In this document: positions 1,619-6,123 of the stretch, one piece after another
Numbering within the stretch: the stretch's first letter is position 1
Layout: every line of letters starts with the position of its first letter
NCBI GenBank assembly: GCA_037446635.1
Contig: JBBIIG010000033.1
Location: 1 to 48,783, forward strand
Direction: 5' to 3'
DNA length: 48,783 bases
Source of the DNA: a bacterium
Lineage (GTDB): Bacteria; Zhuqueibacterota; Zhuqueibacteria; Oceanimicrobiales; Oceanimicrobiaceae
Program-made: the position numbers and the translations under genes
The notes under the pieces: generated by a model
The model's input: only the letters and a program-made list of their open reading frames with translations
Databases searched by the model: none
What the model was told of the DNA's origin: nothing

Positions 1619-2899
1619 TCATTTCCGCAGATGCGCCAACGCCTTGGCGCCAATATCTTTGCGATAATATGCTTTGTCAAATGTTATCTTTCCTACAGCC
1701 CAATAGGCTCGTTCGCGCACCTGCAAAAAATCTTCGCCGAAAGCGGTAACGCCCAGCACGCGACCGCCATCGCTGAAGATGCGGCCCTCGCGATCACTGC
1801 GCGTGCCGGCGTGAAAGACGACGATGTCATCTCCTAATTTTTTGTCGAGACCAAAAATGCGCTTACCCTTTTCATAACTTCCGGGATACCCTCCCGACGC
1901 CACCATCACACACATGGCCCATTTTTTATGAACATCAATTTTGTTTTCCAACTTTTTGCCGCGGGCGACACGCAACATGATTTCCACCAGATCGCTTTTA
2001 ACCAGCGGCAGAATCGCCTGCGTCTCCGGGTCGCCAAAGCGGCAGTTGAACTCCACCACTTTCGGCCCGTCGGCGGTGATCATCAGGCCGGCGTACAACA
2101 CCCCGCGATAGGGGCGATTTTCCAGCGCCATGGCTTTAATGGCCGGCGCGAAAATTTCTTTTTGAACCCGCGCCATCATTTTTTTGTCGATAACCGGCGC
2201 CGGCGCATACGCGCCCATGCCGCCAGTGTTGGGGCCTTCATCGTTGTCGAAAATGGCTTTGTGATCCTGCGCCGACGGCAGGAAAGCCAGATTTACGCCG
2301 TCGGTGATCGCCAAAACCGACGCCTCCTCGCCTACCATAAATTCTTCAATTATGACTTTATCGCCAGCGGGGCCAAACACCTTTTCAATCATTATTTTGT
2401 TAATCGCGACTTCAGCCTGTTCTTCGTTTTGACAAATGAACGTGCCCTTGCCGGCCGCCAGTCCGTCCGCTTTGATGACGGTGGGATACTCAACCTGGTT
2501 GAGGTAGCCGCGCGCCTCGTCAAAATTGGTGAACACAATGCAGTCAGCGGTGGGAATTCGATACTTGTCCAACAAATATTTTGTGAACGCTTTGCTGCCT
2601 TCGATCTCCGCGGCCTTTTTGCTGGGGCCGAAAACCGACAACCCCTGCGCCTCAAATTCATCGACGAGGCCGTTGACCAGCGGCTCCTCCGGACCGACGA
2701 CCGTAAGATCGATCCGGTTTTGGCGCGCGAAGTTGATCAGGCCGTCAAAGTCGGACGGTTTCAAAGCAACGCATTCGGCTATCTGGCCGATGCCGGGATT
2801 ACCCGGCGCGCAGAAAATTTTTTCCGTCAGCGGACTTTGCTGGAGTTTCCAAACCAGCGCGTGTTCTCGCCCGCCGCCGCCGATGACTAAAATTCTCAT
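1619..2899 (-). CDS. purD: Phosphoribosylamine--glycine ligase
   Basis: GGGGREHAL, APGNPG, VVGPE, KADGLAAGKG, GPNTGGMGAY, EFNCRFGDPETQ. Confidence 0.98.
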   Translation of the reverse strand: MRILVIGGGGREHALVWKLQQSPLTEKIFCAPGNPGIGQIAECVALKPSDFDGLINFARQNRIDLTVVGPEEPLVNGLVDEFEAQGLSVFGPSKKAAEIEGSKAFTKYLLDKYRIPTADCIVFTNFDEARGYLNQVEYPTVIKADGLAAGKGTFICQNEEQAEVAINKIMIEKVFGPAGDKVIIEEFMVGEEASVLAITDGVNLAFLPSAQDHKAIFDNDEGPNTGGMGAYAPAPVIDKKMMARVQKEIFAPAIKAMALENRPYRGVLYAGLMITADGPKVVEFNCRFGDPETQAILPLVKSDLVEIMLRVARGKKLENKIDVHKKWAMCVMVASGGYPGSYEKGKRIFGLDKKLGDDIVVFHAGTRSDREGRIFSDGGRVLGVTAFGEDFLQVRERAYWAVGKITFDKAYYRKDIGAKALAHLRK

Positions 2900-2937: not shown

Positions 2938-3306
2938 CTAAAGTTTACCCACGGTTCGCAGCGCAATTAATCCCAATAACAACGCCACCAACATACTAAG
3001 CATGGTGCCGGCGAGAAAATATTCAGCAAAGGCGCGCTCCTTTTGCACGCGTTCATAACGAGCAATGGATTTCATCGTCACCACAAATCCCACCGCCGCA
3101 TACGATTCCAGCCCTACAAGCAAAATGGTTAAGATGCGTTCGAGCGTGCCAATAAAGGCCCCCATTTTATCGGAAGACGCGGTGGCCTCGGGCCGCCACT
3201 TTTTAATCATTTTACGAATCAGCCAATTCGTAGGCCAATGCGCCAGCAAACATGCCAGAAAATAAACGCCGATTTTGATGACCAACTTGAGATCGCATTG
3301 CGGCAT
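2938..3306 (-). CDS. Small membrane protein resembling the C-terminal part of the DUF3307-type partners of SatD
   Basis: Hydrophobic helices; GAFIGTLERIL, KSIARY, AEYFLAGTMLS motifs; GGAGG RBS at 3311-3315. Confidence 0.75.
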   Translation of the reverse strand: MPQCDLKLVIKIGVYFLACLLAHWPTNWLIRKMIKKWRPEATASSDKMGAFIGTLERILTILLVGLESYAAVGFVVTMKSIARYERVQKERAFAEYFLAGTMLSMLVALLLGLIALRTVGKL

Positions 3307-3325
3307 TTTGCCTCCAAATCATTCG

Positions 3326-3430
3326 TTATCAAAATTTTGATAACCAAAATCAGATTATCAACTTTTTGATAACTCAATCTAACTTATCATAATTTTGATA
3401 ACTACATTTAGCTTATCATTATTTTGATAA
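3326..3430. repeat. Four 18-bp palindromic repeats TTATCAnnnTTTTGATAA with an exact 29-bp period (putative operator array)
   Basis: Copies at 3326-3343, 3355-3372, 3384-3401 and 3413-3430; 11-bp spacers ccaaaatcaga, ctcaatctaac, ctacatttagc. Confidence 0.97.
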
Positions 3431-4108
3431 GTCTCCCAGCGCCAGAAAGTTATCTCTGAAAAGCGACCGCAGCGTTGCGGCCAAGTTTTCAAACTCACGA
3501 AAATGTGTTACCTCAACAGTACGGCTGACATTGGAAAGAGGAAGGCCTAACTTTTCCGCGGTTTCCGAAATGCTTTTTCCGGACTCCAGTAAATTCAAAA
3601 CCTCCGTCTGTTTCTGCGTCCAGCGGCTTTTGATGACGGCCAGAGAAAGAAACAACGCATTGATCAGATCATCGCGCAGCGCAGCATCTGTAGAAACGCG
3701 CACCTCCCGCAAAATGGATTTTCCGTAAGCCTTTCGTTCTGCTTTTGCGTCTTCCAAGGCCTGGCGCGCGCGATAAAATGCGGGGCCATCGGCGCCGACC
3801 GCATATACCCCCAGCGAGGTGCTGAGGCCGCCGTAGCCCACCCCAAACACAATTTCCGTCGGCGTTAACCCGATCTGAATTAGGCGGAGGATCTCGTAGC
3901 AGAAATTTGGTTGTTTCAAAATCCCTTGCGCTTCATCGCCAGCGGTGATCAAAAACAGGGAAGCAATTTCGGTTTTGAAATCCTGGTTGACTTTTTTTAA
4001 AACGGCCTCGAACCGCTTTTGAACCGCAGCCCGCTCCCCTGCCGGCAGCGCGCGCGACCCCACAAGGTCGCCGATGATGGTCACGTAATTTCGTTGCGCT
4101 TTCGGCAT
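3419..4108 (-). CDS. SatD-family protein (cyclase/palm-like N-terminal domain plus C-terminal HTH)
   Basis: IIGDLVGSR, ITAGDEAQG, FGVGYG, DGPAFYRAR, WTQKQ...SISETAEKLGLPLSNVSR. The ATG overlaps the uvrB stop (TAATG). Confidence 0.85.
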   Translation of the reverse strand: MPKAQRNYVTIIGDLVGSRALPAGERAAVQKRFEAVLKKVNQDFKTEIASLFLITAGDEAQGILKQPNFCYEILRLIQIGLTPTEIVFGVGYGGLSTSLGVYAVGADGPAFYRARQALEDAKAERKAYGKSILREVRVSTDAALRDDLINALFLSLAVIKSRWTQKQTEVLNLLESGKSISETAEKLGLPLSNVSRTVEVTHFREFENLAATLRSLFRDNFLALGDLSK

Positions 4109-6123
4109 TAACTCCACGCGAATTTCTTTTTGCCGGTGAGGCGATCGATTTCATCGCGAATTTCAGCGGCGCGTTCAAATTCCAATTTGCGGGCGGCGTC
4201 GAGCATCTCTTTTTCGAGACGGTCCAAAATTTCTTCTTTTTCCAGCGGGGAAAGTTTCTTCCAGTTGCGGGTGTCGATCGCCGCGGGCGCCCCCTTGCCA
4301 TACTTCGGGGCTTTGGCATCGGCGACGCGGGTGGCGCTCATCACCTGCTCGTAGGATTTGTAGATGGATTTTGGGGTGATGCCGTGCGCCGCGTTGTATT
4401 CCGCCTGCAGCCGTCGGCGGCGATTGGTTTCGTCGATGGTGCGCTGCATCGAGTCGGTGATGTGATCCGCATAAAAAATAACTTTGCCGGCAATGTTGCG
4501 CGCCGCGCGCCCGGCGATCTGCATCAGCGAGCGTTCGGAGCGCAAGAAGCCCTCTTTATCGGCGTCGAGCACTGCGACCAGCGATACCTCCGGCAGGTCC
4601 AGTCCTTCCCGCAATAAATTCACTCCCACCAGCACGTCGAATTCCGCGAGGCGCAAATCGCGCAAAATTTCCACGCGGTTGAGGGCGTCGATTTCCGAGT
4701 GCAGATAGCGCACGCGGATCTCCATGCCGGCGAGATAGTCAGTCAGATCTTCGGCCATGCGTTTGGTGAGCGTGGTGACCAGCACGCGCTCTCCGCGTTT
4801 CACGCACTCGCGGACCTCGGCAATCAAATCATCAATTTGATGTTTGATGGGTTTTACCACGATTTGTGGGTCCATCAAGCCGGTTGGGCGAATGATCTGC
4901 TCGACCACGACGCCTTTGCTTTTTTGCAACTCGAAGTCGGCCGGCGTCGCCGAGACGTAAATCATCTGGTTCATCATCCCTTCAAATTCGGCGAAGGTCA
5001 GCGGACGGTTGTCCAGCGCCGAGGGCAGCCGGAAACCGTGCTCCACCAGCGTCTCTTTGCGGGCGCGGTCACCGTGATACATGCCGTTGATCTGCGGAAT
5101 GGTGGCGTGCGATTCATCGATGATGGTCAAAAAATCTTTCGGAAAATAATCAATCAAAGTGTAGGGCCGCTGGCCTGGGGCGCGCCCGGAAAGGTGGCGC
5201 GAGTAATTTTCGATGCCCGTGCAGTATCCCAATTCTTGCAGCATTTCGAGATCATACTTGGTGCGCATTTCTAAACGCTGCGCTTCCAACAACTTGTTTT
5301 GCGAACGAAACCACGCCAACCGCTCTTCCAACTCCTCGCGAATGGCAATGATGGCGCGTTCCACTTTGTGATAGGGCGTCACATAATGCTTGGCGGGATA
5401 AATGGCCGCCGTCTCCTGCGACGACAAGATTTCGCCGGTCACGGTGTTGACGAGACTGATCTGCTCGATCTCATCGCCGAACATTTCGATGCGCAGCGCC
5501 TCCTGCTCGTACGCCGGGAAAATTTCGACGACATCGCCGCGCACGCGGAAGGTGCCGCGCTTGAACTCGAAATCGTTGCGGGTGTAGTAGCTATCCACGA
5601 GTTGGGATAAAATGCGATCGCGCGCGATGACCTGGCCGCGTTTCAAAATCAGCAGCTCGTGTTTATAATCTTCCGGATCGCCCAAACCGTAAATGCATGA
5701 CACCGAGGCCACGATGATCACGTCGTCGCGGGACAGCAGCGAACTGGTAGCTTTCAACCGCAGGCGGTCGATTTCGTCGTTGATGGAAGTGTCTTTCTCG
5801 ATGTAGGTGTCGGAGCTGGGGACGTAGGCCTCGGGCTGATAGTAATCGTAATAACTGATAAAATATTCAACGGCGTTTTTGGGAAAAAAACTTTTGAACT
5901 CGCCATAGAGCTGCGCCGCCAGCGTCTTATTGTGAGAAATCACCAGTGTGGGTTTGCCCACATTGGCGATGACGTTGGCCATGGTGAAGGTTTTGCCGCT
6001 GCCGGTGACGCCCAGCAACACTTGATGCTTTTGGCCACTCAAAAGCCCATTGGTGAGCTCCGCAATCGCCCGCGGCTGATCGCCCGTAGGCTTGAAATCT
6101 GAAACCAATTGGAAATGCGCCAT
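4108..6123 (-). CDS. uvrB: Excinuclease ABC subunit B
   Basis: [41 protein letters not shown]-terminal UVR domain ([11 protein letters not shown]). Confidence 0.99.

Follow-up and report, generated by a model that had tools for sequence, protein, structure and literature searches.

Four phased palindromes between satD and a membrane-protein gene as candidate operators of a SatD-family regulator

Arrays of several palindromic operators are known from hipBA loci, for which two reports describe four palindromes bound cooperatively by the helix-turn-helix (HTH) protein encoded next to them (PMC3376134, PMC4150777). The sites read TATCC-N8-GGATA in E. coli, with gaps of 10, 21 and 10 bp, and GTGTA-N6-TACAC in Shewanella oneidensis, where they lie 34 bp apart (PMC3376134, PMC4150777). 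Two further systems are comparable in protein content: the sat locus of Streptococcus mutans with SatD (PF16264) and SatE (DUF3307, PF11750), and Panoptes, which combines the mCpol protein OptS with the membrane effector OptE. No description of SatD binding sites was found in the searchable literature, whose coverage excludes subscription journals and bioRxiv supplements. Multi-operator arrays of the hipBA type are a known kind, and a SatD-family version appears undescribed in the searchable papers.

A candidate array of this kind stands in the window, i.e. the whole analysed stretch of 48,783 nucleotides (Table 1). On the minus strand the order is uvrB, satD, array, ribosome-binding site, membrane gene, purD and an epimerase-like gene. 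The satD product reaches 120.2 bits on PF16264, for which the gathering cut-off is 29, and is a member of this family; its membrane partner resembles SatE in part (see below). In comparison to the sat locus, the array stands between the two genes, the partner lacks DUF3307 and satD is coupled to uvrB. Unlike in hipBA, the candidate binder joins a palm domain to an HTH, a membrane protein takes the place of the kinase, and the regulator gene precedes the array; the period is uniform throughout the SatD family (28–30 bp). Identity with a hipBA toxin-antitoxin module was rejected, since the partner is a membrane protein and the assembly (G000, 97% complete) contains no HipA_C match.

Table 1. Features of the satD locus, with positions in the window
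Feature	Position	Strand	Remarks
purD	1619..2899	-	38 nt past the membrane gene; next gene after uvrB in cassette-free relatives
Membrane partner gene	2938..3306	-	122 aa, all-helical model
GGAGG ribosome-binding site of the membrane gene	3311..3315	-	read from sequence
Dyad 1	3324..3345, core 3326-3343	.	23.4 bits, matrix from relatives only
Dyad 2	3353..3374, core 3355-3372	.	24.6 bits
Dyad 3	3382..3403, core 3384-3401	.	33.9 bits; closest to clade consensus
Dyad 4	3411..3432, core 3413-3430	.	27.8 bits; covers the final three codons and stop of satD
satD	3419..4108	-	229 aa from the ATG overlapping the uvrB stop; Pfam SatD E 1.3e-34
uvrB	4108..6123	-	stop overlaps the satD start by one base

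An earlier note on this DNA had described four palindromes at an exact period of 29 bp. This is confirmed by the window sequence, in which the copies start at 3326, 3355, 3384 and 3413 (spacing 29/29/29). The note's further counts could be reproduced as well: 15 of 18 positions are invariant, copy 1 and its flanks form a perfect 20-bp palindrome (3325–3344), and copy 4 supplies the L-S-K-stop end of satD. Its remark that the spacers all begin with C holds for the three 11-bp spacers, but this C belongs to the full site, a 22-bp dyad A(G/C)TTATCA-N6-TGATAA(C/G)T that leaves only about 7 bp free between sites. Dyad 1 is the final site ahead of the membrane gene, whose ATG is 19 nt away. In orthologues the position of the first dyad ranges from -22 to +235 nt relative to the satD stop, so the overlap with the stop codon is incidental. 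The dyad centres (3332–3337 and equivalents) are A-rich on the coding strand throughout the clade; across clusters the same was seen in only 5 of 12 with downstream arrays.

Window shuffles contained on average 0.05 matches with up to one mismatch, and four matches were reached in 0 of 100. The exact motif occurs four times in the 4.64-Mb assembly, always in the array; outside it the assembly has nine single sites, each with one mismatch. A matrix built from 32 units of relatives, the window being left out, places the four array sites at the top of the genome (23.4–33.9 bits), followed by an isolated site at 17.7 bits. These scans bear on a condition that the earlier note named as a refutation, namely that the motif belongs genome-wide to some unrelated regulator; host proteins similar to HipB, Fur or FNR were considered. 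The core does resemble the HipB site TATCC-N8-GGATA given in PMC3376134; however, all four exact sites fall at one locus, the genome has no second exact or phased site, and HipA_C is missing from the assembly, as stated above. Together with the covariation with SatD described below, this makes a host regulator a highly improbable reader. Consensus sites of Fur, DnaA, dif and resolvases were dropped for the same reason, the motif being confined to a single locus and following SatD.

The array was also compared between sequencing runs and relatives. DNA contigs of four other runs span it, and the differences listed include no indel within the array; they concern mostly spacer 3 and the dyad centres, and one lies in a core arm. 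The phased array is kept in 13 of 14 loci with SatD of at least 50% identity, of which 12 show phased TTATC-N8-GATAA directly, one (G015) shows it across a contig break and one (L003) has none. The spacing of neighbouring dyads in the orthologues is 29 bp in 23 of 24 cases and 28 bp in the remaining one. As the units were chosen by motif likeness, the conservation of the arms is partly circular, that of the spacing is not.

Selection on site and spacing rather than recent slippage had been proposed on first reading, and this holds in so far as arms and period are kept across genera and centres and spacers drift. The three 11-bp spacers have 4, 6 and 7 of 11 bases in common, and two loci (L067, L272) carry near-identical units, which indicates that duplication does occur. 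Both observations would suit a neutral relic of tandem duplication or of cassette insertion. Such an origin is nevertheless extremely unlikely to account for the array, because 31 SatD clusters share this period although their site sequences are unrelated. Judged from its sequence, the array is a real, selected operator array.

The period was followed through the family with a motif-free scan for phased dyads (periods 18–45). For this, 239 satD loci were gathered, 224 full-length ones kept and 176 retained after reduction below 95% identity. At a score of at least 17, a threshold set afterwards just above the control maximum of 16.8, 80 of 172 windows upstream of satD and 35 of 173 downstream gave a hit; among the 176 in-gene controls there was none. 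The period was 28–30 bp in 104 of these 115 hits, 73 of them upstream of satD and 31 between satD and its partner; 72 of the 176 loci have no array above the threshold. With no threshold applied, the best period fell at 28–30 in 112 of 172 upstream, 59 of 173 downstream and 16 of 176 control windows. All 104 arrays stand 5′ of the partner position, compared to one in 144 windows past the partner stop. Arrays of period 28 tend to have an odd centre of 7 bp (36 of 44; e.g. the actinobacterial loci L183 and L187), those of period 29–30 an even one (45 of 60).

A downstream array is associated with a short partner in raw counts (20 of 27 versus 4 of 60), which come down to one independent pair on well-supported tree branches. 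Short partners without a downstream array were found in 23 of 58 loci that have no scored array. Coupling of satD to the upstream gene (17 of 28 versus 24 of 66) was set aside owing to crude ORF calls.

The half-sites differ between clades, and with them the recognition helix of SatD. TTATC occurs with the helix PLSNVSRT, GTCAA/TTGAC with S[KR]QAV, TGAAG or TTAAG with SAVSQ, GAACC with ERAV/PRAV/TRGV and ACAACC with QQAV/QQGV. For a test of this covariation, one locus was taken for each of 31 SatD clusters (<45% identity) and a five-residue window was moved along SatD, with correction for N-domain identity and GC. Half-site similarity tracks residues 192–196 (partial r 0.31, family-wise p 0.0015), which lie in the predicted recognition helix (residues 191–200 of the model). 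The windows 193–197 and 194–198 pass as well (r 0.25 and 0.25; p 0.025 and 0.037) and no others do. Identity of the N-domain (r -0.006) had no bearing on site similarity, nor had the difference in GC (r -0.05), and no single SatD column among the 31 clusters passes the family-wise correction. The helix still ranked first once four actinobacterial clusters had been removed (p 0.0065). When cluster members were chosen at random it did so in 19 of 20 draws, at 45% as well as at 40% clustering, with a family-wise p below 0.05 in just 11 of 20 (45%) and 9 of 20 (40%) resamplings; the SatD clusters are not fully independent.

That the site covaries with the HTH recognition helix and with no other part of SatD makes SatD very likely the binder, and on these comparisons we regard binding of the array by SatD as very probable. 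A host regulator would not explain why the site changes with the SatD helix or why the arrays accompany satD and not orphan partner genes. The locus thus combines several phased dyads beside an HTH gene, confined to this place in the genome, with a site that follows the recognition helix, as in an operator array.

The second suggestion of the earlier note, four RNA hairpins cut into units of about 29 nt in the manner of type III toxin-antitoxin systems, fared worse. The region folds far better than shuffled sequences (z about -7), as any palindrome array does. In the 104 arrays, single-arm departures give G-U on the coding strand in 46 cases and A-C in 42, and 11 compensated double changes stand against 284 single and 10 uncompensated double ones. 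The outermost pair is Watson-Crick in 18 of 36 units, each side taking G or C independently, and a search of Rfam brought no family near its gathering cut-off. The near-equality of G-U and A-C, the few compensated changes and the Rfam result form the pattern of a double-stranded protein site. Moreover, 73 of the 104 arrays lie upstream of satD. ToxN-type nucleases are a feature of the type III family, and the partner here is a membrane protein. Processing into small RNAs is therefore among the least probable explanations considered.

The membrane partner itself gave nothing above the cut-off in Pfam, and DUF3307 (PF11750) was found neither in it nor anywhere in the assembly. Its homology is with the C-terminal half of SatE proteins that bear DUF3307, a domain it lacks: a profile of 38 short partners matches 98 long partners at residues 133–240 of 247 (medians), and in four of five long partners scanned DUF3307 spans the N-terminal half. 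The C-terminal membrane domain (G53, E56-R57, K79, R83, Y96, G100) directly follows satD, as for a SatE-type partner, and a partner is located after 143 of 150 satD genes. Models and alignment of the partner are based on residues 2–122. Fold searches brought no clear match, the best Foldseek E being 1.7 and the best Z 8.5, to a designed helical protein; Atlas contained only unnamed or DUF3307-fragment clusters (about 0.9) and PADLOC no match.

The cassette varies within its surroundings. Among 18 family genomes with a uvrB match, purD is the next gene in 8 and a cassette or remnant is present in 10, one of which (G016) was judged from two contigs. In 11 of 12 genomes outside the family satD is absent between uvrB and purD, and in one it is present. 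Going by this pattern of presence, the cassette is accessory inside a uvrB-purD-epimerase run.

In some loci the cassette is decayed. In L003 (G008:C5) the array is deleted, the partner broken and another gene inserted before purD; the joint loss of array and partner rests on this one locus. In a further locus (L017, G003:C243) satD is cut to about 67 codons and the partner is gone. In the genome G014 an inserted element divides the array and the dyads are degenerate, with an intact partner gene on another contig; this speaks against a close tie of the partner to the array. The element, with matching inverted ends, sits between dyads two and three (L005:2250-2456; L271, C460 end, C771 end). 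L040 (G108:C4) has satD and a strong four-site array and no partner after satD; a long partner gene stands alone, without a scored array, on another contig of that genome (L277, G108:C68). Across 167 genomes of the phylum, 74 near-full partner matches were counted, a number that leaves out 15 fragment, broken or weak rows: 65 adjoin satD, four lie at contig ends and five are intact orphans. The orphans have no such array, and two of them are in genomes (93% and 96% complete) without a satD match. The array goes with SatD.

With SatD as the reader of the sites, the repeats are probably operators through which it holds down the downstream membrane gene, and limiting this gene is the likely main job of the array. 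Because the stop of uvrB and the start of satD overlap, satD would be read from the uvrB transcript, and it would escape its own control. One dimer of the SatD HTH would occupy each dyad, loading side by side on the phased sites, and the fixed period of 28–30 bp (about 2.75 turns at 10.5 bp per turn) suggests contacts between neighbouring dimers. The bound array would lower transcription into the membrane gene. Since arrays lie 5′ of this gene in both layouts, before as well as after satD, we infer that it is the common target.

As to how transcription is lowered, a partial roadblock to read-through would be likelier than the covering of an internal promoter. A search of the minus strand brought up no terminator between satD and its partner. 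Matches to sigma-70 promoters show no sense-strand excess (12 versus 19 for downstream arrays, 34 versus 38 for upstream ones), the test being weak and null in both layouts. Both results lean weakly towards a partial roadblock rather than promoter occlusion. The first proposal, operators of the SatD HTH acting on the membrane gene, has good backing from conservation, phasing and helix covariation; a promoter excess on the sense strand did not materialise. If the roadblock were tight, purD and the epimerase gene close behind would be throttled too, which counts against a tight block.

Throttling of purD would be avoided if SatD on the array instead activated a promoter for the membrane gene and the purD-epimerase genes. 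The arms contain TTGATA, a -35-like hexamer, and 5 promoter-like sites were counted where 1.2 are expected. These matches, however, stem from the dyad and are present on both strands, and many upstream arrays have the centre of their last dyad at the called start codon or past it, which fits repression better. Activation is accordingly a distinctly improbable reading.

Repression by SatD may further respond to a ligand. The model of SatD (pLDDT 91.7) consists of an N-terminal palm domain and a C-terminal HTH, the latter weakly resembling NarL/GerE-type domains (best E 0.0014). All 176 representatives have D14, G57 and D58 in the palm and 173 have E59, whereby the invariance of D14, unlike that of D58, is partly built in by the locus search pattern. 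The palm fold (best match Z 11.6, rmsd 2.5, 114 aligned) is about equally like class III nucleotidyl cyclases, GGDEF domains, GTP cyclohydrolase III, Cas10/Cmr2 and OptS. With two aspartates at the positions expected for metal, it probably binds or makes a nucleotide, which would tune repression. An active palm domain would turn SatD into a nucleotide-signalling module tied to an operator array of its own. Full-length fold matches were obtained with Rv2242 and BAD_0249 (E 9e-5 and 3e-4), which carry a GGDEF-like domain before the HTH and which we take to be CdaR/PucR-type regulators. The rmsd of these matches is high (13.6 and 14.9), and in contrast to them SatD has invariant acidic residues and comes with a membrane partner of its own.

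A palm protein with two conserved aspartates next to a membrane gene is also reminiscent of Panoptes, and OptS (9pd0) is among the fold matches of SatD (E 8e-4). SatD differs by its HTH and operator array, and class III cyclases and GGDEF domains match as well or better. Pfam at E up to 0.1 returned for SatD only SatD and HTH models and no mCpol profile, matches of SatD in PADLOC were confined to the HTH, and of two Panoptes papers, neither passages of PMC12657218 nor a term search of PMC12657230 brought up SatD.

By analogy with Panoptes, where mCpol does this for OptE, the array could be an assembly platform on which SatD palms make a nucleotide signal that keeps the partner shut; a toxic membrane effector would be set free when either the DNA or the signal is lost. 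A palm fold in common with class III cyclases, Cas10 and OptS would suit such a role, as would the conserved acidic pair of the palm, OptS using Asp6 and Asp57 (PMC12657218). The regular partner behind satD, a period that stays fixed while site sequence and side vary, and the patchy presence and decay of the cassette in the family would fit it too. A further point in its favour, which counts equally for the operator reading above, comes from S. pyogenes, where satD was the single essential accessory gene in a Tn-seq study (PMC11323703). This essentiality-when-present fits, by analogy and with the tie to PF16264 made by gene name, a SatD that restrains something harmful. A pure scaffold could sit anywhere, yet the arrays lie 5′ of the partner, and intact orphan partners occur, two of them in genomes without a satD match. 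Defence genes are scarce: neighbouring ORFs with a PADLOC match at 1e-10 number 10 of 138, mostly generic folds and with no baseline for comparison, and the partner has no match of its own. A platform of this kind is rather improbable. With five orphan partners and little defence content nearby, neither an obligate toxin nor a system of defence islands is favoured. The sole unambiguous defence neighbour among the 138 is a BrxL gene that follows the satD cassette in L146 (L146:2016-3245).

In a broader version of this thought, SatD and SatE would form a widespread guard or antitoxin-toxin system that has so far escaped description, in which assembly on the array both represses the effector gene and switches a nucleotide signal. 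We hold this to be unlikely, if somewhat less so than the platform. If it were true, the effector would be set free once the signal or the chromosomal array is lost, and the large number of helix/site pairs would amount to an orthogonal recognition code of natural origin.

For the operator reading preferred here, the consequences concern a large family (4,676 clusters at 50% identity, E up to 0.001) that has so far been annotated only via an association with acid tolerance. SatD gains a testable role as a DNA-binding palm-fold regulator with a predicted site per clade, a fixed geometry and a likely target, and the proposed restraint of the membrane gene may offer an explanation for the essential accessory gene of S. 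pyogenes. SatD was not found in annotated phages and viral contigs with the queries used, and a plasmid collection contained 9 SatD records. Several relatives (P0046, P0060, P0071, P0112, P0119 and others) are 410–550 aa long, some with two matched stretches, and may be tandem or fused forms. A laboratory-accessible place for the model is given by S. ratti (L163), where the order is ffh-satD-satE-radC and a 28-bp array with TATAAT lies upstream of satD (score 17.7).
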